Source: an uncultured Thermoanaerobaculia bacterium
Lineage (GTDB): Bacteria; Acidobacteriota; Thermoanaerobaculia; Multivoradales; Multivoraceae
Assembly (NCBI GenBank): GCA_951812325.1
Contig: OX638294.1
Location: 3,198,859-3,262,858 of the forward strand
DNA length: 64,000 nt
Reading direction: 5' to 3'
Part shown: piece after piece, positions 5,102 through 64,000 of the stretch
Layout of the letters: each line of letters opens with the position of its first letter
How positions within the stretch are numbered: position 1 is the first letter of the stretch
The notes under the pieces: model-generated
Database searches by the model: none
Told to the model about the DNA's origin: nothing
Seen by the model: only the letters and a program-made list of their open reading frames with translations
Position numbers and translations under genes: made by a program

Positions 5102-5314
5102 GGGTCGTATGGCCAACAATCTATCAGTCGTGCTGGATACTCGATCATGCCGCTCTGGCCGGCGGCGCCGTTGGTCGGTTGCAGTAGAGATCACCGCTGG
5201 CCCGGCGCCGGTTCTCTGGGTGCGCGGTCCGTTGCGCGCGCCTTTGGCCCCCGATCCGAGCGCAGCGGCGAAGCGGCGAGCGCGAGTCGCGTTGCCCCGC
5301 GCTACGATTCCCCA

Positions 5315-6964
5315 ATGATCAAACGAGCTCTCGCCCTCGCGTTTCCTCTTCTCGCGTTTCTCCTCGGCGCCTGCAGCACACCCGCTCCGCCGCCCGATAC
5401 CGCAACCCAACTCGACACCTGGATCGCCGACCTGGCCGACGACGCGATGGAAGGCCGCGGCCCCGGCACGGCCGGCGACGTGATGGCGCGCCAGTACATC
5501 GCCGACGTGATGGCCGGCATGGGCCTCGAACCCGCGGCCGCCGACGGTAGCTGGGAGCAGCCCTTCGACATCGTCGGCATCGACGCGGCGGTGCCCGAGA
5601 CCTGGACGTTCCACTCCAGCGCCGGCGACAGCGTGGAGTTTGCGTTTTGGGACGAGTTCATCGCGCACAGCGGCGTCCAGTCGGAGCAGGCCGCGATCGA
5701 GAACGCCGAACTCGTGTTCGTCGGCTACGGCATCCAGGCGCCCGAGTACGGCTGGGACGACTACGGCGACGCGGACCTCGCCGGCAAGGTGCTCGTCATG
5801 CTGAACAACGATCCGGACTGGGATCCGGACCTGTTCGAGGGCGACCGCCGCCTCTACTACGGCCGCTGGACGTACAAGTACGAGAGCGCCGCGGCTCAGG
5901 GCGCCGTCGGTGCGATCATCATCCACACGACCCCTTCGGCGGGCTACCCGTTCCAGGTCGTACAGACCTCCTGGACCGGCCCGCAGTTCGAGCTTCCCGC
6001 GGAAGGCGAGGCCCGCACCCGGATCAACGCCTGGCTGACGGAGGAGGCCTCCCGACGGCTCTTCGCGCTGGCCGGCGTCGACTACGACGCGACCCTGGAA
6101 TCGGCCCGGAGCGCCGACTTCGTGCCGGTGCCGCTCGGCCTGTCGACCAGCCTTTCGCTGACGAACACGGTAACCAGCGAGCAGACCGCCAACGTGCTCG
6201 GCGCCCTGCCCGGCAGCGACCCGGAACTGGCCGACGAGTGGGTCGTCTTCACCGCCCACCACGACCACATGGGCATCTCGCCGGACGAGAGCCTGGAGGA
6301 CCGGATCTACAACGGCGCCCTGGACAACGCGGCCGGCGTTGCCCAGGTGCTCGCGGTCGCCGGCGAGCTGGCCGCGCAAGAGCCCGGTCCGAGCAGGTCC
6401 ATCCTGTTCGCCTTCGTCGGCGCCGAGGAGCAGGGACTGCTCGGCTCCGAGTACTACGCCGCTCATCCCACCGTGCCGCCCGGCAAGATGGCCGCGAACA
6501 TCAACTACGACGGCGGCAACCAGTGGGGCCGCACCCGCGACGTGACCTACATCGGCTACGGCAAATCGAGCCTCGACGGTGTCGTCGAAGCGGCCGCGGC
6601 CGAACAGGGCCGCACCGTGCTGCCCGACCAGTTCCCGGCCAACGGCTACTTCTACCGCTCGGACCAGTTGAACTTCGCCCGCATCGGCGTGCCGGCGATT
6701 TACCTGGACAACGGCACCGACTTCATCGACCGCCCCGAAGGCTGGGGCCACGAGCAGCTCAAGGCCTGGACCGAGAACATCTACCACCAGGTCTCCGACG
6801 AGTACGGCGAGGACTGGAACCTCGAAGGCATGGTCGACGACGTCGAACTCGGCCTCGCCTGCGCCCGCGCCATTTCCGAGAACCCCGAACTCCCGTCCTG
6901 GAACCCCGGCGACGAGTTCGAGGCGGCACGGTTGGCGGCGCTGGCCGCCGTGTCGGGCGAGTAG
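5315..6964 (+). CDS. M28-family zinc aminopeptidase lipoprotein with PA domain
   Basis: Starts at internal MIKRALALAFPLLAFLLGACS (lipobox). Has HHDHMG, NGALDNAAGVAQVL and FVGAEEQGLLGSEYY metal-ligand motifs. The 5' part of the track ORF is antisense to xerD and rejected. Confidence 0.8.
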   Translation: MIKRALALAFPLLAFLLGACSTPAPPPDTATQLDTWIADLADDAMEGRGPGTAGDVMARQYIADVMAGMGLEPAAADGSWEQPFDIVGIDAAVPETWTFHSSAGDSVEFAFWDEFIAHSGVQSEQAAIENAELVFVGYGIQAPEYGWDDYGDADLAGKVLVMLNNDPDWDPDLFEGDRRLYYGRWTYKYESAAAQGAVGAIIIHTTPSAGYPFQVVQTSWTGPQFELPAEGEARTRINAWLTEEASRRLFALAGVDYDATLESARSADFVPVPLGLSTSLSLTNTVTSEQTANVLGALPGSDPELADEWVVFTAHHDHMGISPDESLEDRIYNGALDNAAGVAQVLAVAGELAAQEPGPSRSILFAFVGAEEQGLLGSEYYAAHPTVPPGKMAANINYDGGNQWGRTRDVTYIGYGKSSLDGVVEAAAAEQGRTVLPDQFPANGYFYRSDQLNFARIGVPAIYLDNGTDFIDRPEGWGHEQLKAWTENIYHQVSDEYGEDWNLEGMVDDVELGLACARAISENPELPSWNPGDEFEAARLAALAAVSGE

Positions 6965-8403: not shown

Positions 8404-9576
8404 CCATGCTGGAAGTGCGAGCGGAAGGGCTGAAGACGCGATAGGTAGTGCGGGTAGGCCGTTCCTGGCTCGGGATGGTACGAGGTCGTCGGCGCTGCTT
8501 CTGGCGAGTCCATGCGAGATAAGGTTCCACTTCTTCTTCCCGAGGCATGCCGGCGGTTTCTTCTCAAGTCCCTCAGTCAGCATGTTCAGGACCTCAGGTA
8601 CCTTGGCTTTACGGTCTTCAAAGAACTCCACATGATCGTCTGCGAAGCGGTCGCTCAACCAATGCTTGATTGCGTCGATTCCTGCGGGACACGTTTTGTC
8701 GACTGCGTCGTCCATGATACCGCGAAGTTCGCTGGCGATCTGCCCCACCATGTGCTGTTCTGAATCCGAAGGCTGCGGAAGACATGCGCGGTGCGCAAGA
8801 AAGGCTGGATCAAGGTCCGGTCCGAAGTGTTCCAGTACCCGGTATACGTTCTCCCGGACGGCGGCGAGAGCAGTGAGAACGAGGCTGGGCAGGAGTCCCT
8901 GGGCCATTTCGGCGACGTCGGCGATGAGCCGCTCGGCCAACTCTTCTTCGTTCACAACCGTGTTCAGGGCGTCGGCGCCGGAGCCGGGCTTCCCGTAGAC
9001 GACGATCCGGCACGCTCCGAAGTCGATGCGACCATGGTCGTCTGTCGTCCGAGTCGTTCCATGGGGTGCGTCCAGGTCGTTAAGGCGTTCGGAAATTCGT
9101 CTGCGAATGTCCTGGCGGTCGGGCTCGCCGGTGTAGAACGCGATCAAGCGAAGCCGAGCGGGCTGATCTGCCCGCAGGATACGCTTTAGCAGTGGCAATG
9201 CGGTCGCGCCGCTGGTTCGGCTCAGCCGCCAGTCCAAAATGACGATGTCCGCACGAGCGATGGCTTTGACGAGAGCCTCAAGGTCGTCTTGGTCTCGCGG
9301 GGGCAGTACTACGCCGCAGACCATCCCCTGGCGGGCAAACGACAAGGTGATGGGGTCAACCTTCAGGGGCCGGGACGGACCATGTTGCGGGGCGGCTTGG
9401 GCCGGTGCTTGGCTCGAGGCGCGCTGGTCGGGTGGGGTCAGCCCGCCGTGGACCGGCGTCTCTGCCGGGGCGGAGAGCTCGTCGTCAACGACCACCGCTG
9501 TCAGCAGGAAGCGCCGGACGATCTCTTCACAGTGCTCGCCAAGCGCGTTCGCTTCCGGGGAGCTAGGGTTGGTCAT
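8398..9576 (-). CDS. Receiver (REC) domain protein with about 260-aa C-terminal domain of unknown function
   Basis: Start moved to internal ATG (MTNPSS...), which has an AAGGG ribosome-binding site (RBS) 8 nt upstream and overlaps the last 4 codons of the upstream kinase gene. REC-like motifs: AVVVDDE, ADIVILDWRL (phospho-acceptor Asp), LIAFYTGEP, VVYGKPG. The 3' end overlaps vsr tail-to-tail by 6 nt. Confidence 0.7.
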   Translation of the reverse strand: MTNPSSPEANALGEHCEEIVRRFLLTAVVVDDELSAPAETPVHGGLTPPDQRASSQAPAQAAPQHGPSRPLKVDPITLSFARQGMVCGVVLPPRDQDDLEALVKAIARADIVILDWRLSRTSGATALPLLKRILRADQPARLRLIAFYTGEPDRQDIRRRISERLNDLDAPHGTTRTTDDHGRIDFGACRIVVYGKPGSGADALNTVVNEEELAERLIADVAEMAQGLLPSLVLTALAAVRENVYRVLEHFGPDLDPAFLAHRACLPQPSDSEQHMVGQIASELRGIMDDAVDKTCPAGIDAIKHWLSDRFADDHVEFFEDRKAKVPEVLNMLTEGLEKKPPACLGKKKWNLISHGLARSSADDLVPSRARNGLPALPIASSALPLALPAWL

Positions 9577-20703: not shown

Positions 20704-23096
20704 CAGTTGTCCGCCAGGGCCTCGGCCTGCAGGCGCGCCCGCGGGCCGACCTTCGGGCCGGCGTCCGACCCCAGCCGTCCGCGCTCCGCGGTGGCGAGGG
20801 CGTCGAATACGGCTCGAGCGCGAGCCCGGTACGCGTCCTGGCCCTCGTCGCCGAGCATCTGCAATGCGAGGCCCACCGTGTACTGGACCGTCTCCCGGCC
20901 CAGACCCGCGCGGCCGGGAGCGTCGATCGTGCGCAGGCTGCGGATTGCCGCGCGGGCGTCGCCGCCTGCCAGCAGCAGGTTCGCGAGATCGAATTCGAGC
21001 AGCCAGCGCGGGATGTCGCCGGTTCGCTCCAACTCCTGGAGCAGCCGCGCGGCGGCGGCAGAGGGCAGCAGGTCGGGACTCCTGACGTCGAGCTGGGTCC
21101 AGCCCCACTCCGGCTCGACGGTCAGGACCCGGACGGTGTCCCGATCCTGGATCTCGAGTTCGACCACGTCGCCGGGCCGCAGGTCCTCGAGAACCGAGGT
21201 CAACTGCAGGGTCGAGTATGCGGCCGTTCCGTTGATGGCCAGAACTCCCATCCCGGGCCTGAGTCCCGCTTCCTGCGCGGGTCCGCGGGGCTCTACGGTG
21301 GCCACGATGGGCGCATCCGCACTCAGCGAGTCGATCAGGACGGCGCCGAACCGCGGCGCTTGAAGGCCCAGATCCGGATCGAGCCCGCCGGCGAGGCTGA
21401 CGAGCGCTTTGCCGTCGAGACGGCCGTCGTCGATCCGCACGGTCCGCACGTCCGGCCGGGCCGGGCCGGGAGCGGCCGGCCACCACCACAGGTCGACCGC
21501 ATCGGCTACCAGATCGTCGTTCAGGACGGCGACGAAGTAGAGCGCCGCCGGCAGCCCGGCCTGAATGTGCTCCTGAACCGCGGGCCAGTCGAGCTCCCGG
21601 CGGGCGGCTGCCCTTTCTCGCAGCACCTCCGCATCGACTCCCAGGCCGGCGAGCGCGGCGACACCTTCCGTGGCGCGTCCGAGCACGCTGTAGGCGCTGG
21701 CGCCGCGAAACGATTCGAGCGCCGCGTCCAACGCCCGAGCGCCGGCGGGATCGTCGCCCAGCACGCCGAGGTAGACCAGCGCGGGGCGGAGTTCGATCTC
21801 GATGTCCAGCCGTCGCCGGTCTTCGGCGATCACGGAGGTTTCGAAGTAGCCCAGGGCGCCGTGGGTTACCGAGATGTCGTAGGCGCCGGGAGGCAGGCGT
21901 ACCTGCGGCGGTGACTTCGAGCGGTCGGGACGCAGGATCCGGCCGTTGCCAAGAACGGCCGCGCTTTCCGGCAGGCCGGCGAGACCGATGACCGCTTCCT
22001 CACGCTCGAGAACGATCGGCGGCAGCTCGTAGTCGCGGAGGTCGGGCAGTTGCAGGCGCGTCACGAAGCTCCGGAAGCCATCCTTCTCGATCGTGATCCG
22101 GTAGCGGCCGGGGGCCAGATCCTCGACCCGGAGTTCCTCCGAGAAGTCCTCGGGCGGATGATCCGAGGCTGGCCCGTCCGGTCGGAACCAGGGTTCTGCC
22201 TGGCCGGCCGTTCGTCCGCGTTCGATGCCGTCGACCAGGACCGCGGCGCCGGTCGGCGCGGTACGCAGGAGGACAACGGCGCTGTCACGCTCCAATTCGA
22301 CTTCGACCTCGAGGTCGCGCCCGCCGATGACCGTGAACGCTGCGGTAGCAGGCAGAAAGCCCGGACGCGAAATGAAGGCCAGGTAGTCGCCGACCAGCAT
22401 GGGACTGGGCTCGGGCGGTTCGAACGGTTCCGGTCCCGGTTCCGCGTCCATTCCCGTCTCGGGGTCGGCCGCCGCGTCGGCGTCGCCTCCGTCACCCGGC
22501 TCCCCGCGTTCCTCGCGCGGAGGCGTCTCAGGCGGCGCGGCGTTGCCGAACTCCGCGTCCCCGACCAGAATGCGCGCGTCCCGCGGCAGGACGAAGAAGG
22601 AGACGCGGCCCAGGAGCTCTTCCTTTCGGCGCTCCAGGCGATCGGTCAACTGCCTGCCGGCCGTTTCCGCGTCCAGCTCGAAGCGGGGATCGAGGCGGAC
22701 GATCCGGTCGAGGGAGGCGTCGGCGGCGTCCCGATCGCCGAGCGTCCACCGGGCGGCGGCCAGATAGAGCCAGGCGGTGCGCAGGGTCTCGAACAGGCGT
22801 GGGTCGTTCGCGGCCAGGTCCCGCGCGTTGCCGGCAGCGACAGCGAGCGGCTCCAGCGTGTCGACCACGCTCTGCAGGATGGGAATTGCCCCCTCGGAGT
22901 CGCCTTCCGCGTAGAGGTCGCCGGCCTCGGCCAGTGCGGCCGTCGCCTGTGGCGGCAGCCGGCTCGAACGCTCGATCTCCAGATCGCTGCGGCCGATTTC
23001 CTGGACACCCGGGCGCTGTGCGGCCAGGGGGCCGGAGAGCGCGACGACCAGGGTCAGGATGGGCCCGAGCATCTCGAACCGGCGGCGTGCGCTCAT
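20703..23096 (-). CDS. Secreted TPR / PDZ-domain protein
   Basis: 797 aa. Signal peptide, TPR-like N-terminal region, acidic low-complexity linker, C-terminal PDZ-like GLRPGMGVLAINGTA...LRPGDVVELEI. Confidence 0.6.
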   Translation of the reverse strand: MSARRRFEMLGPILTLVVALSGPLAAQRPGVQEIGRSDLEIERSSRLPPQATAALAEAGDLYAEGDSEGAIPILQSVVDTLEPLAVAAGNARDLAANDPRLFETLRTAWLYLAAARWTLGDRDAADASLDRIVRLDPRFELDAETAGRQLTDRLERRKEELLGRVSFFVLPRDARILVGDAEFGNAAPPETPPREERGEPGDGGDADAAADPETGMDAEPGPEPFEPPEPSPMLVGDYLAFISRPGFLPATAAFTVIGGRDLEVEVELERDSAVVLLRTAPTGAAVLVDGIERGRTAGQAEPWFRPDGPASDHPPEDFSEELRVEDLAPGRYRITIEKDGFRSFVTRLQLPDLRDYELPPIVLEREEAVIGLAGLPESAAVLGNGRILRPDRSKSPPQVRLPPGAYDISVTHGALGYFETSVIAEDRRRLDIEIELRPALVYLGVLGDDPAGARALDAALESFRGASAYSVLGRATEGVAALAGLGVDAEVLRERAAARRELDWPAVQEHIQAGLPAALYFVAVLNDDLVADAVDLWWWPAAPGPARPDVRTVRIDDGRLDGKALVSLAGGLDPDLGLQAPRFGAVLIDSLSADAPIVATVEPRGPAQEAGLRPGMGVLAINGTAAYSTLQLTSVLEDLRPGDVVELEIQDRDTVRVLTVEPEWGWTQLDVRSPDLLPSAAAARLLQELERTGDIPRWLLEFDLANLLLAGGDARAAIRSLRTIDAPGRAGLGRETVQYTVGLALQMLGDEGQDAYRARARAVFDALATAERGRLGSDAGPKVGPRARLQAEALADN

Positions 23097-23172
23097 CGCT
23101 ACTGCCCCGAACGACGGTCGCGGTCGTCAACTGCCCCGACGAGGGCCTTGAACAGGCGGCGTGCGCTCATCG

Positions 23173-24519
23173 CTACTCCACGACCAGGACGGTGCCGAGC
23201 CTGCTGTCGGCGATGAAGATGCGCCCCCGGGCATCGACCGCGATGTCCTCCGGGGCCCGAAGCTCCTGGGCGCCCGGGAGGGTGGGTCCGATCGTGGCGA
23301 CGGGAGCGGCCGCCGGGTCGTAGACGAGGACCTGCAGCGCTCCCGTGTCGAGCACGTACCGGTTGCCCAACGGGTCGACGTCGATCGCCGTGGGCCGTTT
23401 CCATTCGGCGCGGAACGACTCCTCCAACCTGCCGTCAGCGGCGAAGCGGAGCACCGATGGAGCCTGTGAGCGGGAACCCGCGTCCAGGACGTGGATGGCG
23501 CCGTTCTCGCCGAGGGCCAGGTCGATGGGCCGGGTCATGGCGGCCGCCTTCAGGGTCTCGAGCAGGCGGCCGTTCGAATCGTAGCGGAGCACCTCGGCCG
23601 CGCGGCGCGACAGAACGGTCCAGTTGCCGAAGTCGTCCCGGGCGGCGGCGACGATCCGGTCGAGGGCGCCGCCCTGAGGGCGGGCGAACGACAGGCTCGT
23701 CGGCGCCTGGAAGTCCGTCACTCCATCGGCCGTGATCACCGCCAGCGGGCCTCGGGATGTCTGGCCCGGCTTGACGATCCCGCGCAGGTCGCGGGCCGCG
23801 GACGGCATCCCTGCGGCGTCGAGAATCGCCGCGCGATTCGGCTCGGTGACCAGGAGTTCACCGTCCGGTCCGGCGGCGACACCGCGGGGCCTCTCGATTC
23901 CCACCCGTTCTGGCAGGTAGGGCCGGGAACGGCGCCAGGGTTCCCCGCCGGCCAGTGGCCGCAGGATCATGCGCTCGATCAGGGTCGTCCGTTCGAGCGC
24001 CGCATCGGCAAGGTCGGCAACCGACGCCTCGCCTGCGGCGGCGCGGCGGAGCCAGCCTTCCCGCGCCAGCCGCAGATGGTTGGCTGCCTGCTGCCAGTCG
24101 CCCCGCGCGAGGAGCAGTTCGCCGAGTTCGAAGTGGGCCCTGGGAGTCCACTCGCTCTCGGCCTCGCGCTCCAGTACGCGCAACAGCTCGCCTCCGGCTG
24201 CTGCGGCGTCGCCGGTCCGCCGGCCCAGCGCGGCTGCCTCGACCAGGGCGCGGGCGCGAACCGCCGACCGGGGGTGTCGGCTCCGGGGAAAGCGCTGGCT
24301 GATCGCCAGCAACTGCCCGCGGGCGTCCCTGAGGTCGCCGGTGCTGCGCGCCGAGGCCGCGATGGCGAGTGCCGCATCCACGGCCGCGGCCGCCTCCCGC
24401 CGGGTCTCGTCCCGCCGGGTCTCGTCCTGCCGGGTCTCGTCCTGCCGGGCCGGCAGAGCCGCGGCGACGAGGACTGCGACCAGGCACAGGCCAAGGCGGG
24501 GACACGGGCTGCGGATCAT
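23173..24519 (-). CDS. Secreted TPR + NHL-repeat beta-propeller protein
   Basis: Start at internal MIRSPCPRLGLCLVAVLVAAAL (signal peptide). C-terminal NHL-like repeats (NRYVLDTGALQVLVYD; RGRIFIADSRLGTVLVV). Confidence 0.6.
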   Translation of the reverse strand: MIRSPCPRLGLCLVAVLVAAALPARQDETRQDETRRDETRREAAAAVDAALAIAASARSTGDLRDARGQLLAISQRFPRSRHPRSAVRARALVEAAALGRRTGDAAAAGGELLRVLEREAESEWTPRAHFELGELLLARGDWQQAANHLRLAREGWLRRAAAGEASVADLADAALERTTLIERMILRPLAGGEPWRRSRPYLPERVGIERPRGVAAGPDGELLVTEPNRAAILDAAGMPSAARDLRGIVKPGQTSRGPLAVITADGVTDFQAPTSLSFARPQGGALDRIVAAARDDFGNWTVLSRRAAEVLRYDSNGRLLETLKAAAMTRPIDLALGENGAIHVLDAGSRSQAPSVLRFAADGRLEESFRAEWKRPTAIDVDPLGNRYVLDTGALQVLVYDPAAAPVATIGPTLPGAQELRAPEDIAVDARGRIFIADSRLGTVLVVE

Positions 24520-53810: not shown

Positions 53811-53907
53811 GTTAGTTCAGTTGTGGACTCGATGTCAACCGCGAAGCGAGGCCTGCAGCGGCTTGGTGCGCAACCGGGAGCCGGCAGCGGCGCGCCGTGC
53901 GCCCGCC

Positions 53908-54171
53908 GGTTACACCAGTTCGCTCAGCCGATGCAGCGCCGCCAGCAGGTCGGGCTGCTCGGTGAGCACGCCGCGTAGCGGGTCGGTCTTGCGCCGGTTA
54001 CACCAGTTCGCTCAGCCGATGCAGCGCCGCCAGCAGGTCGGGCTGCTCCGTGAGCACGCCGCGTAGCGGGTCGGTCTTGCGCCGGTTACACCAGCTCGCT
54101 CAGCCGCCTTAGCGCGGCCAGCAGGTCGGGTTGCTCGGTGAGCACGCCGCGTAGCGGGTCGGTCTTGAGCT
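53908..54171. repeat. 88-bp tandem repeat x3; third copy is the authentic 3' end of ligD, including its stop codon
   Basis: Units begin at 53908, 53996 and 54084 with ggttacaccag(t/c)tcgctcagcc...gtgagcacgccgcgtagcgggtcggtcttg. Each copy carries the TAA (minus strand) and about 28 C-terminal codons. Confidence 0.85.
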
Positions 54172-56833
54172 GCTTGAGCCGTTCGGGCAGCGACCGGATG
54201 GTGTGGTCGCGCAGGTCGAGGCCGGGCTTGACCTCGGACCAGCGCAGCGGCGTCGAGACCGGGGCCGCCGGGAGCGGTCTGACGCTGAAGGGGGCGACGA
54301 GCAGCCGTCCGCGGCCGTTCTGGACGAAGTCGATGTAGACCTTGCCGCCGCGGCGTTCGGGGTTGCGGGTGATCGTGGCGATGTCGGGCAACTGGCGGCA
54401 GATGATCCGGGCGATCAGTTGGCCGAGGCCGCGGGACTGCTCGAAGGTGCAGGCGCCGCCGAGCGGCAGAAGAACGTGCAGACCGCTCGAGCCGCTGGTC
54501 TTGACGAAGCTGGGCAGCTTGATCTTCCGGCACAGGCGGCGGATGGCCAGGGCGATCTCGATCACGTCCCCGAAGGGTGCGTCCTTCGGGTCGAGATCGA
54601 GGATGCACCAGTCGGGCTGGCCGAGCTGGTGCACCCGGCTCGACCAGACGTGGAGGACGATCGCGCCCAGGTTGGCGATGTAGACCAGGCTTTCACGGTC
54701 CCGACAGACGAAGTACTCGACTTCCTTGCCGGTGCGGGGGCTCACCAGCTTCACGGTTTGCAGCCAGTCCGGCGCGAAGTCGGGCGCGTTCTTCTGGAAG
54801 AAGGACTTGCCTTCGATCCCGTCGGGATAGCGGGTCATGACCAGCGGCCGGTCGGTCAGGTAGGGCTGCATCGCGTCGGCAATCCCGGCGTAGAAGTCGA
54901 TCAGGTCACCCTTCGTGTAGCCCTCGGCCGGCCAGAACACCTTGGACCTGTTCGTCACGTCGACGCGCCGTTCGGGCGGCGGCGGCGGGGCGGCGCCGGG
55001 GGCCCGCGGCCCGGCGCGGCGTACGCAGTCCTCGACCGGCTTGTCGTCGCGCAAGCGGAGGAAGACAGGGTGCCGGAGCACGCCGTGGGGGGTCCATTCC
55101 TTGTAGCGGACCTCGCAGATCAGCTCCGAACGGGGCTCGATCCAGGTCTGCTCTTCGACCCGGCCGCCGATCAGGTCGTTGTCGGCCAGCGGCCTGTCGA
55201 CGGGATCGTCGGCGTCTGCGCCGTTGCCCGCGCGGCCGCCGGCGTCTGCGCCGTTGCCCGCGCGGCCGCCGCCGTCGGCGCCGACGGGGGCCCGGCATGG
55301 CGGACGGTCGCGCTGGTTGGCCGACAGTCGATCCGCCAGCTCCGCGAGGATCGCGTCGCTGAACCCGGCGCCGACGCGTCCGGCATAGACGAGGCCGCCG
55401 GCTTTGCCTTCGCCGGCTTTGCCTCCGCCGGCTTTGCCTCCGCTGGCTTCGGCGCCGCTGGCGCCGGCTTTGCCTCCGCTGGCGGCCGCCGTGCCGCTGG
55501 CCTCCGCATCCCAGACCGCCAGGTGGAGCGAGCCGAAACCGACCCGGCTGCCCTTGGGCGGCGACATGCCGACGATGGCGAAGTCGGCGGTCCGTTCGGT
55601 GCGCAGCTTGACCCACGACGACGACCGGCGGCCAACGTAGCGGGAGTCGCCGTCCTTGGCCATCGCGCCTTCAAGGCCCATCGCCGCCACCTGCTCGAAG
55701 AACGCCTCGCCCTGCTCCTCGATGTGGTCCGAGTAGCGGAGCGGCCCGGCCGGGGGCAGAACCTTCGCCAGCAGGGCCTTTCGCTCCAGCAGGGCCAGCG
55801 ACCGCAGGTCCGATCCCTCGAAGGCGACGAGATCGAAGGCGAACAAGGTCGCGGGCCGGCGCACGGCGGCCTGTTCGATGTCGACCGGTCGGCTGAGCAG
55901 GGCGCGCGTCTGCAGCCTGGCGAAGCTGGGCCTGCCGCCGGCGTCGAGGACGGTGACCTCGCCGTCCAGGACCAGGGACTGCACCGGCAGGGCGCGCAGG
56001 GCGCGGACCAGTTCGGGGTAGAGCGCGGTCACGTTGCCGCCGTTCCGGTAGCGCAGGAAGACGTTGCCGCCTTCCCTGGCCGCCACCAGCCGGTAGCCGT
56101 CGTACTTCAGTTCGTAGATCCAGCCCGGCCGGGAGAACGGCCGGTCACCGGCGACCGCGAGCATCAGTTGCAGCGAGCGCGGGTCGACGTCTTGCCGTCG
56201 CGCGCCGGATTCGGCGACCTCGGCACGCACCTCCTCGATCCGCTCGCAGCCGTCCCGGAGTTCCTCGACGGTCAGGCCCGAGAGCACGGACTCCGGCGGC
56301 AGGTCGTCCGCGCCGCCCTCGCTCTCCGGGCGGGCAGCCGCGTCGGGTTTCTTCATCAGCAGCCACTGGTTGCCGCCGTCCGTCTGGCGCCGGCCGCCCG
56401 TGCGAAACAGGGTCCAGACGCCGCGCAGCTTGTAGCCGTGGAGTTCGAAGAGGAGCTTGCCGTTCTCCAACCCGGCGACCGGGTCCTCAAGCGGCCTCCA
56501 GCGGCCGCTGTCCCAGACGATCATCGCCCCGGCGCCGTAGTTGCCGGCGGGGATCGATCCCTCGAAATCGGCGTACTCCAGCGGGTGGTCCTCGGTGGCC
56601 ACCGCCAGGCGTTTGACCTCGGGGTCGAGGCTGGGACCGCGGGGCACGGCCCACGACTTGAGAGTGCCTTCGAGTTCCAGGCGCAGGTCGTAGTGAACGC
56701 GGCGTGCCGCGTGCTTCTGGACGACGAAGCGGCCGGCGCCCGTTCCCGTCGCGGGACCGAAGGGTTCGGGCGTCGCTTCGCTCGATCGCTTGCGGCGGTA
56801 GGCCTCGAGATTGCCGCTCGGCATCCGCGGCAT
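54086..56833 (-). CDS. ligD: Multifunctional NHEJ ligase LigD (phosphoesterase - ATP-dependent ligase - polymerase domains)
   Basis: 915 aa. N-terminal PE domain (VQKHAARRVHYDLRLE), ligase KxDG motif ELKYDGYRLVA, C-terminal Pol domain (SGSSGLHVLLPL). The low-complexity (GKAG)n / (GGRAGNGADA)2 linker is encoded by DNA repeats. Confidence 0.9.
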   Translation of the reverse strand: MPRMPSGNLEAYRRKRSSEATPEPFGPATGTGAGRFVVQKHAARRVHYDLRLELEGTLKSWAVPRGPSLDPEVKRLAVATEDHPLEYADFEGSIPAGNYGAGAMIVWDSGRWRPLEDPVAGLENGKLLFELHGYKLRGVWTLFRTGGRRQTDGGNQWLLMKKPDAAARPESEGGADDLPPESVLSGLTVEELRDGCERIEEVRAEVAESGARRQDVDPRSLQLMLAVAGDRPFSRPGWIYELKYDGYRLVAAREGGNVFLRYRNGGNVTALYPELVRALRALPVQSLVLDGEVTVLDAGGRPSFARLQTRALLSRPVDIEQAAVRRPATLFAFDLVAFEGSDLRSLALLERKALLAKVLPPAGPLRYSDHIEEQGEAFFEQVAAMGLEGAMAKDGDSRYVGRRSSSWVKLRTERTADFAIVGMSPPKGSRVGFGSLHLAVWDAEASGTAAASGGKAGASGAEASGGKAGGGKAGEGKAGGLVYAGRVGAGFSDAILAELADRLSANQRDRPPCRAPVGADGGGRAGNGADAGGRAGNGADADDPVDRPLADNDLIGGRVEEQTWIEPRSELICEVRYKEWTPHGVLRHPVFLRLRDDKPVEDCVRRAGPRAPGAAPPPPPERRVDVTNRSKVFWPAEGYTKGDLIDFYAGIADAMQPYLTDRPLVMTRYPDGIEGKSFFQKNAPDFAPDWLQTVKLVSPRTGKEVEYFVCRDRESLVYIANLGAIVLHVWSSRVHQLGQPDWCILDLDPKDAPFGDVIEIALAIRRLCRKIKLPSFVKTSGSSGLHVLLPLGGACTFEQSRGLGQLIARIICRQLPDIATITRNPERRGGKVYIDFVQNGRGRLLVAPFSVRPLPAAPVSTPLRWSEVKPGLDLRDHTIRSLPERLKQLKTDPLRGVLTEQPDLLAALRRLSELV
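55211..55270. repeat. Perfect 30-bp tandem duplication inside ligD encoding (GGRAGNGADA)x2
   Basis: ggcgtctgcgccgttgcccgcgcggccgcc twice. An adjacent GCCGGCTTTGCC(T/C)CCGC repeats encode the (GKAG)n linker. Confidence 0.8.
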
Positions 56834-58842: not shown

Positions 58843-61850
<3,008 letters not shown>

Positions 61851-61852
<2 letters not shown>

Positions 61853-62100
61853 CAGCGGTACGATGACCGCCATGCCAGCGCCCGCCCGGCGACCGCCCGG
61901 CGCCCGTCTCGACCGACCACGACACGTCGGGCGACAGCGGTACGATGACCAGCCATGCCAGCGCCCCGGCGACCGTCTCGACCGACTGCGACACGTCGGG
62001 TGACAGCGGTACGATGACCGCCATGCCAGTGCCCGCCCGGAGACCGTCTCGACCGACTGCGGCACGTCGGGTGACAGCGGTACGATGACCCGCCATGCCA
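61851..62100. repeat. Tandem repeat (units 82, 69, 71 bp, plus a partial fourth) immediately upstream of and running into the MT-A70 MTase start
   Basis: Units begin at 61851, 61933, 62002 and 62073 with gacagcggtacgatgacc(n)ccatgccag(c/t)gc... Each copy reproduces the ATGCCAGCGC start context of the MTase gene. The first copy starts at the M1 peptidase stop codon. Confidence 0.85.
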
Positions 62101-62733
62101 GCGCACGAGCACTTGGCGGCGGCCGACTTCGAGCGGACGTACGCGGGTAGCGTCTTCGGCACCGTCCTGGCGGATCCGCCGTGGCAGTTCCTGAACCGCA
62201 CCGGCAAGGTGGCGCCCGAGCACCGCCGCCTGAGCCGCTACGCGACCCTTTCGCAGACCGAGATTGAAGCAATCCCGGTCGCCGCGGCCTGCGCCGAGGC
62301 CGCCCACCTCTACCTCTGGGTACCCAATGCCCTCGTCCAGGAGGGCCTGGACGTGATGAAGCGCTGGGGTTTCACCTACAAGACGAACCTGGTCTGGCAC
62401 AAGGTGCGCAAGGACGGCGGCCCCGACGGTCGGGGAGTCGGCTTCTACTTCCGCAACACGACCGAACTCGTCCTGTTCGGCGTCCGCGGAAAGCTCCGCA
62501 CGCTGGCGCCGGGCCGGCGGCAGGTGAACATCATCCGCTCGCGCAAGCGGGAACACTCGCGCAAACCGGACGAACTGTACGAGATCATCGAAGCGTGCAG
62601 CCCCGGCCCCTACCTGGAGTTGTTCGCCCGCGGCCGCCACTCCGAACTCTGGACCGCCTGGGGCGACCAGAGCGACGGCTACGAGCCGGATTGGCCCACC
62701 TACGCGAACGCCAGCGGCGGCGTGGACCGCTAA
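62095..62733 (+). CDS. MT-A70-family N6-adenine methyltransferase
   Basis: 212 aa with the catalytic DPPW motif (VLADPPWQF) and conserved WVPN, FYFRNTTELVLFGVRGK. Confidence 0.8.
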   Translation: MPAHEHLAAADFERTYAGSVFGTVLADPPWQFLNRTGKVAPEHRRLSRYATLSQTEIEAIPVAAACAEAAHLYLWVPNALVQEGLDVMKRWGFTYKTNLVWHKVRKDGGPDGRGVGFYFRNTTELVLFGVRGKLRTLAPGRRQVNIIRSRKREHSRKPDELYEIIEACSPGPYLELFARGRHSELWTAWGDQSDGYEPDWPTYANASGGVDR

Positions 62734-62939
62734 CGGGCGGTGGTCTGGCTCGGCGCCCGCCGCCCGGCTCGAAGGCGCCGCCCCGCCGGCGTGTACCGCT
62801 AACGGGCGGTGGTCTGGCTCGGCGCCCGCAGCCCGGCTTTGAAGGCGCCGCCCCGCCGGCGTGTACCGCTAACGGGCGGTGGTCTGGCTCGGCGCCCGCC
62901 GCCCGGCTTGAAGGCGCCGTCCCGCCGGCGTCAGGCGAT
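62731..62939. repeat. About 70-bp tandem repeat x3 spanning the convergent 3' ends of the MT-A70 MTase (+) and fic (-)
   Basis: Units begin at 62731, 62800 and 62870 with taacgggcggtggtctggctcggcgcccgc(c/a)gcccggct...gtgtaccgc. Copy 1 supplies the MTase TAA; copy 3 supplies the fic stop (cta) and last 15 codons. Confidence 0.85.
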
Positions 62940-63921
62940 AGCGCTGGTCCTTCGCCCTCGGCGCCTCCGGTCGCGTCATCTCGATCAGGCCTGCTTGCAG
63001 GGCGGGTCCAAGGTATCCCTGACGCAGCCATTTTCGGTCGCGCAGGCCCAGTGCATCGAGCATCTCGCGCCTGGACATCTCTCCGTTCACTAGCTCCAGG
63101 AGCCGCTCTACTTGGGGGGGCACTTGCGGGGTTTCATGGGGGGTTACTTGGGGGGTTTCATGGGGGGTAGCCTGTCGCACCGCAGCGAGGATTGCGTCCA
63201 GCATGAAACGGATGAACGGTGTGCTCCCGCCTTGCCTGGAACTCTCTTCGATGGCCGTGTAGTACTCGGGCTGGCAAGCCTGCACGACGCTCTCCACCGG
63301 CACGTGGGCGAACATCGGCTTCCAGCGGCTGAGGATCAGGGTCTGCCACAGCCGGCCGAGGCGGCCGTTGCCGTCCTCGAAGGGATGAATGAACTCGAAC
63401 TCGTAGTGAAACACGGAGCTCGCGATCAGCGGGTGCTCCTCGGCGCCCCGCAGCCGGCTCAGGAGGTCCGCCATCAGCCCCGGCACGCGGTCTGCCGGCG
63501 GACCGATGTGGTGTACGCCGTCAGGGCCGATCACGCCCACGGCGGTGGTGCGGTATCGACCGGGTGTTGCGGCCAGTCCGGTCATCAGCGCTCGGTGAGC
63601 CCCGAGCAGGTCGTCCTCGCTCGCCGGCGTCCAATCCCCGGCCAGGTCGTAGGCCGCGTTCGCGTTGCGCACCTCCTGCACGTCCTTCGGCGGCCCTGCG
63701 ACCCGCTTGCCGTCAAGAATCGCCGACACCTGCTCCTCGGACAGCACGTTGCCCTCGATGGCCACGGAACCGTGAACCGTACGAACGCGGGCTTCCCGCC
63801 GCAGTTGCAGGTCCAGCCCCAGGCCGGCTGCTTCGGCCCGCCCGATCGCCTCACCGATCTGCTCCACCAGGAACAGGATCCCGGGCGTGATCGTGTAGGG
63901 CGGCGCCGCGGCAGCGGTCAT
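62869..63921 (-). CDS. Fic-family protein (AMPylation/phosphocholination-type fold)
   Basis: 350 aa. Canonical Fic motif HPFEDGNGRLGR. Contains a small TPHETPQV x2 internal repeat. Confidence 0.85.
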   Translation of the reverse strand: MTAAAAPPYTITPGILFLVEQIGEAIGRAEAAGLGLDLQLRREARVRTVHGSVAIEGNVLSEEQVSAILDGKRVAGPPKDVQEVRNANAAYDLAGDWTPASEDDLLGAHRALMTGLAATPGRYRTTAVGVIGPDGVHHIGPPADRVPGLMADLLSRLRGAEEHPLIASSVFHYEFEFIHPFEDGNGRLGRLWQTLILSRWKPMFAHVPVESVVQACQPEYYTAIEESSRQGGSTPFIRFMLDAILAAVRQATPHETPQVTPHETPQVPPQVERLLELVNGEMSRREMLDALGLRDRKWLRQGYLGPALQAGLIEMTRPEAPRAKDQRYRLTPAGRRLQAGRRAPSQTTAR

Positions 63922-64000
63922 GCCAACACTCTTGCACAGCCTGTTCCGCGGAGGTCCAGGCGCCTTCGGGGTCCTCCGCCACGGTACGATGGGGCCACCC

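Follow-up and report, generated by a model that had tools for sequence, protein, structure and literature searches.

Gene context

The window, by which we mean the whole 64-kb stretch of DNA that was analysed, carries a solitary gene for an MT-A70 family methyltransferase between a peptidase M1 gene and a convergent Fic/DOC gene, with a tandem array at either end of the methyltransferase gene. The three genes are:

60050..61852, + strand: peptidase M1 gene (Pfam PF01433, E 1e-33), stop codon TGA at 61850-61852
62095..62733, + strand: solitary MT-A70 family methyltransferase gene, 212 aa (Pfam PF05063, E 1e-27)
62869..63921, - strand: Fic/DOC gene, convergent (Pfam PF02661 and PF21247)

The methyltransferase ORF contains a DPPW motif, and the closest solved structures to its product are MT-A70 family proteins (E 3e-22). 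It begins with MPA, the same start as in several close homologues, and 62095 was therefore taken as the real start codon. Tandem Repeats Finder detected no tract able to shift the frame inside 62095-62733. Within the Fic gene, a 12/24-bp repeat (63109-63168) encodes TPHETPQV repeats, the copy number of which is about equal in the related locus L098 (3875-3935).

Homologues of the methyltransferase are 71-98% identical, the closest coming from Thermoanaerobaculia (Acidobacteriota) MAGs, many of them named Candidatus Multivorans. In 20 distant loci from Planctomycetota and other phyla (20 among L035-L086, e.g. L061 1595-2236), a BglII-family restriction endonuclease (PF09195, E 4e-47) is encoded upstream of the homologous methyltransferase, which is there 71-81% identical to that of the window. 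No adjacent BglII-family nuclease was found in the window or in the Thermoanaerobaculia loci, hence the designation of the methyltransferase as solitary. Judged from these comparisons, it appears to be the solitary descendant of a BglII-type Type II restriction-modification system, the Thermoanaerobaculia copy of which has apparently lost its nuclease. Because identity is so high across phyla, the distribution of the methyltransferase-nuclease system points to horizontal spread.

The gene order Ku, IF3-C, alcohol dehydrogenase, peptidase M1, methyltransferase, Fic, DUF2277 is kept in relatives. In two loci (L100 2022-2034, L101 2148-2160) the Fic gene is missing and DUF2277 follows directly after the methyltransferase. 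The relative most informative for the arrays, L007 (CATOTG010000001.1), shows 98% protein identity, and its flanks are 95-97% identical to the window; the flanks of L098 are 96% identical, and L005 and L009 are more distant.

The 5' array

The array upstream of the methyltransferase gene and the elements within it are:

61853..61934, + strand: unit 1, 82 nt
61935..62003, + strand: unit 2, 69 nt
62004..62074, + strand: unit 3, 71 nt
62075..62104, + strand: terminal partial unit, with a TACGAT box (62081-62086), an 8-nt spacer and the gene's first 10 nt, the true ATG being at 62095
61859..61864, + strand: -10-like TACGAT box of unit 1; equivalents at 61941-61946, 62010-62015 and 62081-62086
61863..62003, + strand: short ORF of 46 codons, opening 11 nt past the peptidase stop and spanning units 1 and 2
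62014..62088, + strand: short ORF of 24 codons in unit 3, its TGA within the ATGA of the last unit

Read directly from the sequence, the array (61853-62104) consists of head-to-tail units of 82, 69 and 71 nt and a 30-nt partial unit, unit 1 being longer through an internal 11-bp duplication; Tandem Repeats Finder reports 61894-62104 with a period of 69, 3.0 copies, 88% matches and a score of 330. The initial annotation had described tandem repeats at 61851-62100 that multiply the MT-A70 start region, with 3.3 units before the real start at 62095 and the array opening exactly at the peptidase stop. This description is borne out, its coordinates being essentially right: each unit carries a conserved TACGAT box and an ATG, and the homology starts at a GTGA that holds the peptidase stop TGA. 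All units share the pattern CAGCGGTACGATGACC(N)GCCATGCCAG(C/T)G. On the right, the homology ends 10 nt inside the MT-A70 ORF in the window and 13 nt inside it in L007, whose units read ATGCCAGCGCACG. The order within a unit is a decayed peptidase 3' end, a stop codon, a 19-nt spacer with the TACGAT box, and an ATG followed by 10-13 nt.

Two parts of the unit can be told apart. The junction part, 29-32 nt long and made up of the 19-nt intergenic spacer and the start of the methyltransferase gene, is invariant in 9/9 units of the window and L007 (CAGCGGTACGATGACCGCCATGCCAGCGC(ACG)), and the sequence outside it varies among the nine. The 39-nt remainder aligns best with the 3' end of the window's own peptidase gene (semi-global z 3.9, p ~0.003), to which it is ~64% identical, and with no other part of the window. 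The 5' coding region of the methyltransferase was rejected as its source (local alignment z 0.9, not significant), a same-offset match of the 39-nt part to that region (GNCCGACTNCGA) being suggestive at most; the peptidase 3' end fits better, and it was probably from the last ~35 nt of the peptidase gene that the non-promoter part of the unit came. With one part matching the peptidase end and the other the junction, the 5' unit is most simply read as a duplicated segment of ~71 bp across the peptidase-methyltransferase junction.

Probes of 28 and 33 nt from the unit matched nowhere else in the 64-kb window (chance expectation 0.00 each). Nor did the unit occur elsewhere in ~100 related loci or in a metagenome scan, in which a 20-mer of the unit gave 11 chance matches, 0 of them with a methyltransferase. 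A REP-like palindromic element of 41-45 nt (GCCGRCGGGGACGYCGGCGCACCCAGTGTG), often in tandem, occurs in intergenic spacers of relatives (L099 1295-1376, L015 2966-3092, L040 1-102, L005 ~990-1045); this family was rejected as the source of the 5' unit, being unrelated in sequence and absent from the window.

The TACGAT box and the short ORFs

In 33/36 Thermoanaerobaculia loci the methyltransferase ATG is preceded, at a distance of 6-10 nt (mostly 9-10), by a TAC[GC]AT box, which is kept whichever gene lies upstream (peptidase, FGE-sulfatase gene or retroelement cassette). The stretch from this box to the methyltransferase ATG contains no Shine-Dalgarno sequence. Bacterial promoters include -10 elements of the form TANNNT, and leaderless or short-leader mRNAs occur; on these grounds we infer that the box is the proximal promoter element of the methyltransferase gene itself. 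A promoter and terminator scan of the arrays gave neither a canonical sigma-70 promoter nor an intrinsic terminator. A 549-codon ORF (5303) also has a G[GC]TACGAT box 6 nt ahead of its ATG (5303-5317), and another is present at the edge of the window (63985-63990), where relatives have DUF2277. These occurrences fit G[GC]TACGAT being a -10-like element in general use in this organism where leaders are very short.

The 5' units open ORFs of 20-24 codons that stop in the ATGA of the following unit. These ORFs end 0-7 nt from the next start, successive ones being linked by ATGA/GTGA overlaps. In L007 the chain is unbroken and ends on an in-frame ATG of the methyltransferase gene. In the window it is partly broken by indels (units of 82, 69 and 71 nt, and a 1-nt insertion in the last unit), and the last short-ORF stop falls 6 nt before the true methyltransferase ATG. 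As a sign of selection the full chain was given little weight, since the unit lengths are 2 mod 3 and stop-free frames come easily at 70% GC, so that such a chain is likely enough by chance. An RNA element was ruled out as the nature of the unit, as its predicted folds are no better than those of shuffled sequences (z 0.2-0.9) and it has no Rfam match at E up to 1.

The 3' array

A second array on the same methyltransferase gene, missed in the initial annotation, lies at the junction with the Fic gene:

62715..62931, + strand: 3' array, 3.1 units of 69-70 nt (62715-62783, 62784-62853, 62854-62931)

Tandem Repeats Finder gives it a period of 69, 3.1 copies, 95% matches and a score of 391. Its left edge falls within the last five methyltransferase codons and its right edge within the 3' tail of the convergent Fic/DOC gene, the stop codon of which lies inside the unit nearest that gene. 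Each unit comprises the last 4-5 methyltransferase codons and the last ~19 Fic codons and contains a CTAA that is a stop codon on both strands; the unit is thus the 4-nt overlap of two convergent stops together with the tails of both genes.

The 3' unit is single copy in L098, L005 and L009. In L098 the methyltransferase and Fic genes overlap by the 4-nt CTAA, and the single unit is bracketed on both sides by a 7-nt direct repeat, CGGCGTG, an arrangement that would be the state expected before a microhomology-mediated duplication. The two edge units of the window match the two units of L007, and the middle unit of the window is a hybrid of them, as predicted by unequal exchange.

Copy number and structural variation in relatives

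L007 has both arrays at the same junctions, the 5' array with 4.5 units of 71 bp and the 3' array with 2.1 units of 69 bp. Copy number in the 5' array, whose invariance across reads and strains would have counted against the initial annotation, does differ, with 3.3 units in the window vs 4.5 in this ~96%-identical relative. The 3' array has 3.1 copies in the window vs 2.1 in L007 vs 1 in L098, L005 and L009. Both arrays thus have head-to-tail units at a fixed locus and a copy number that differs between close genomes, as in a VNTR. None of the remaining loci fetched has an array of large period adjoining the methyltransferase gene. Beyond the position at which the window ends, L007 has a 135-bp x2.3 tandem repeat (8759-9073), apparently in a long ORF.

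L098 carries a duplication of the start region at a spacing of 76 nt, and the intervening sequence is not recognisably related to that of the window; the history of this junction is therefore more complex than one event. At the same junction, between the peptidase and methyltransferase genes, there is an FGE-sulfatase gene in L001-L003 (2851-3921) and L101 (351-1421), and an FGE-sulfatase/bAvd/reverse-transcriptase cassette in L005 (1188-3927) and L009. The FGE-sulfatase gene with bAvd and reverse transcriptase is a diversity-generating retroelement cassette. From the varying cassette content among relatives, the peptidase-methyltransferase junction appears to be a hotspot of structural variation.

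Other local duplications in the window

Three further duplications and the gene affected by the largest of them are:

53904..54167, - strand: LigD 3'-end array, 88 bp x3.0, triplicating the last 27 codons and the stop of LigD
54086..56833, - strand: LigD gene
23066..23177, - strand: stop-start junction (TAGcgATGAGCGCACGCCGCC...) duplicated at 74-nt spacing, between genes for proteins of 509 aa and 797 aa
60425..60536, + strand: in-frame repeat of a 37-nt segment within the peptidase gene, spacing 75 nt

Five synonymous codon positions and one H/R codon set the functional LigD copy apart from the two spare ones, a pattern that suggests the later import of a divergent LigD allele, the import probably ending inside the 88-bp array. 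A search of LigD homologues for relatives of this array returned only matches of ~60% identity. Elsewhere in LigD, repeats with periods of 30 bp and 15 bp (55207-55283 and 55395-55484) encode a low-complexity linker rich in Gly, Ala and Lys. At 23066-23177, the first copy opens a bridging ORF of 23 codons, closed by the duplicated TAG 2 nt ahead of the true ATG at 23096. The peptidase gene has an insertion of ~100 nt (60399-60536) relative to L001, L009 and L012; it includes the 37-nt copy of the sequence just after it, and the region is 100% identical in L007 and L098.

The 5', 3' and LigD units share no significant similarity in either orientation, and a common origin of the three arrays was ruled out on account of these mutually unrelated sequences. 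Local direct repeats are in excess, with 6 observed in the 64-kb window vs ~1 expected at the rate derived from 742 kb of related loci (Poisson p ~7e-4; p 0.02 without the two ascertained arrays). Their spacing is 69-88 bp in 5/6 cases vs 2/12 in the controls (Fisher p 0.013). The lineage seems prone to local duplications of ~70-90 bp, and that unrelated duplications cluster at 69-88 bp hints at a limit on size set by the mechanism.

Origin and persistence of the arrays

We consider it probable, at roughly 0.7, that both arrays are independent, locus-specific minisatellites that arose by duplication of a junction-spanning segment and unequal exchange, and that are tolerated as their units carry start or stop signals. 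Short GC-rich direct repeats would have bounded a gene-junction segment of ~70 bp that underwent tandem duplication, after which the number of units would have been altered by unequal exchange among them or by slippage during replication. With signals that begin or end the flanking ORFs present in each unit, the arrays would be tolerated, because no copy number alters the peptidase, methyltransferase or Fic protein. Elsewhere in gene-dense DNA, such duplications would disrupt ORFs and hence not be tolerated; the arrays would illustrate how tandem duplications survive only where each of their units includes a start or stop signal for the adjoining genes. If neutral, they may serve as fast-evolving strain markers for this uncultured acidobacterial lineage.

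Besides the start-region duplication of L098, two observations sit less easily with independent minisatellites. An invariant junction part beside a remainder of ~64% identity needs either concerted evolution in the array or selection on the promoter/start part, and its perfect conservation would fit either. In addition, simple slippage leaves the narrow 69-88-bp spacing of unrelated duplications unaccounted for.

Copy number and expression of the methyltransferase

The initial annotation had likened copy-number change in the 5' array to phase variation of a DNA methyltransferase. On/off phase variation is not supported: the array is confined to the region upstream of an intact last unit, and however many units are gained or lost, the ORF cannot be shifted and the proximal box and start stay in place, because that last unit remains downstream with box, ATG and frame always kept. 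Equivalent arrays stand at the 3' ends of genes (62715-62931 and 53904-54167), where there is no promoter logic, which argues for a general duplication process and not a dedicated switch. A graded effect is possible. Each 5' unit would add one potential promoter box and one short ORF abutting the next start, so that array length might shift methyltransferase expression by degrees, up or down, either through added promoter boxes or because ribosomes would have to terminate and reinitiate more often on the way from the peptidase stop to the methyltransferase start. Were array length indeed to tune a solitary methyltransferase, this would be epigenetic variation based on a minisatellite, distinct from the simple-sequence-repeat switches of pathogens.

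That the 5' array is a selected, copy-number-dependent regulator, acting on the methyltransferase through tandem boxes, a ribosome relay over the short ORFs, or both, with unit gain and loss producing epigenetic heterogeneity as in phase variation, we regard as unlikely. The box and ATG conserved in every 5' unit would suit it, as would the fully conserved junction part beside a variable remainder and the difference in copy number between close relatives, but the internal boxes of L007 are degraded (TACGCAT, TACGGT) and the full sigma-70 consensus was not found. Its ribosome relay would draw on the unbroken ATGA/GTGA chain of L007, which runs onto an in-frame methyltransferase ATG, and is at odds with the indels that break this chain in the window. 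There is precedent in mycobacteria: expression in M. tuberculosis has been reported to be affected by VNTR copy number (Tantivitayakul 2010, as cited in PMC4803746), and MIRU insertions at start codons are considered to leave coupling intact, since the ORFs they contain couple to those codons (PMC12548453). Against a regulator stand also the lack of an off state, as the last unit always supplies box and start, and the 3'-end arrays, at which such regulation makes no sense.

More doubtful still is an active, size-constrained duplication of junction segments of ~70-90 bp in this species that would provide the methyltransferase with a copy-number-tunable promoter/short-ORF relay. The Ku and LigD end-joining genes of the same window are a conceivable agent of duplication with such a size constraint. 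If this were so, methylation state might be set differently in sister lineages via the level of the methyltransferase.

It is very improbable that a small mobile, MIRU-like element, inserting at start codons and amplified in tandem, gave rise to the units. Unit size, intergenic site and the overlap of stop and start codons resemble MIRUs (PMC12548453), and the 5' unit weakly matches the duplication at 23066-23177 (CGACYGCGAC(A)CGTCG, p ~0.005 uncorrected). The absence of the unit from the rest of the window, the ~100 related loci and the metagenome scan speaks against such an element, as do the mutually unrelated 5', 3' and LigD units and the match of the non-junction part to the local peptidase 3' end. 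Hardly more credible is an assembly artefact, or the scar of a lost retroelement cassette, for although all genomes involved are metagenome assemblies and L001-L003, L005 and L009 carry the FGE-sulfatase gene or the whole cassette at the junction, the units are set apart by substitutions and indels that are not adenine-specific, the arrays recur in an independent assembly with other copy numbers and their own variants, and the unit shows no similarity to the cassette-bearing loci.

Comparison with known systems

Phasevarion repeats are tracts of 1-9 bp inside an ORF or a promoter spacer that switch a gene on and off. The locus described here is like a phasevarion in associating a repeat tract of variable length with a methyltransferase gene, but its units measure ~70 bp and are placed outside the ORF, which always keeps its proximal box and start codon intact. 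The enzymes differ as well, a solitary MT-A70 methyltransferase of apparent BglII-type descent here as against Type III mod or Type I hsdS genes in phasevarions. Tandem promoter duplications and upstream-ORF relays are matched in so far as the units repeat a -10-like box and a start, with ORFs ending close to the next start; unlike in those systems, promoter activity and reinitiation are here deduced from sequence, and the internal boxes are partly degraded in L007.

By analogy, the closest known systems to both arrays are probably the mycobacterial MIRU/VNTR loci (ETR, QUB), which likewise have tandem units, tens of bp in length, at junctions between genes and a copy number polymorphic between close strains. 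The unit size, which the initial annotation had thought unusual, is ordinary for bacterial minisatellites, mycobacterial MIRU/VNTR units being of the same order (PMC12548453). As in MIRUs, the ORFs of the units overlap or abut the flanking stop and start codons (ATGA, -4 nt), so that downstream translation can stay coupled (PMC12548453); this -4-nt arrangement is complete in L007, with its ATGA/GTGA overlaps, and partly broken in the window. MIRUs form a dispersed, related and apparently mobile family, whereas each array here has its own, locally derived sequence, and no dispersed related units were found in the 64-kb window and the related loci. MIRU hosts are actinobacteria and the host here is an uncultured Thermoanaerobaculia bacterium; judged from the host phylum and the local origin of the unit, homology of the 5' unit to the mycobacterial MIRU consensus is unlikely. 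The arrays extend the known bacterial minisatellite/VNTR type to an uncultured lineage of the Acidobacteriota.
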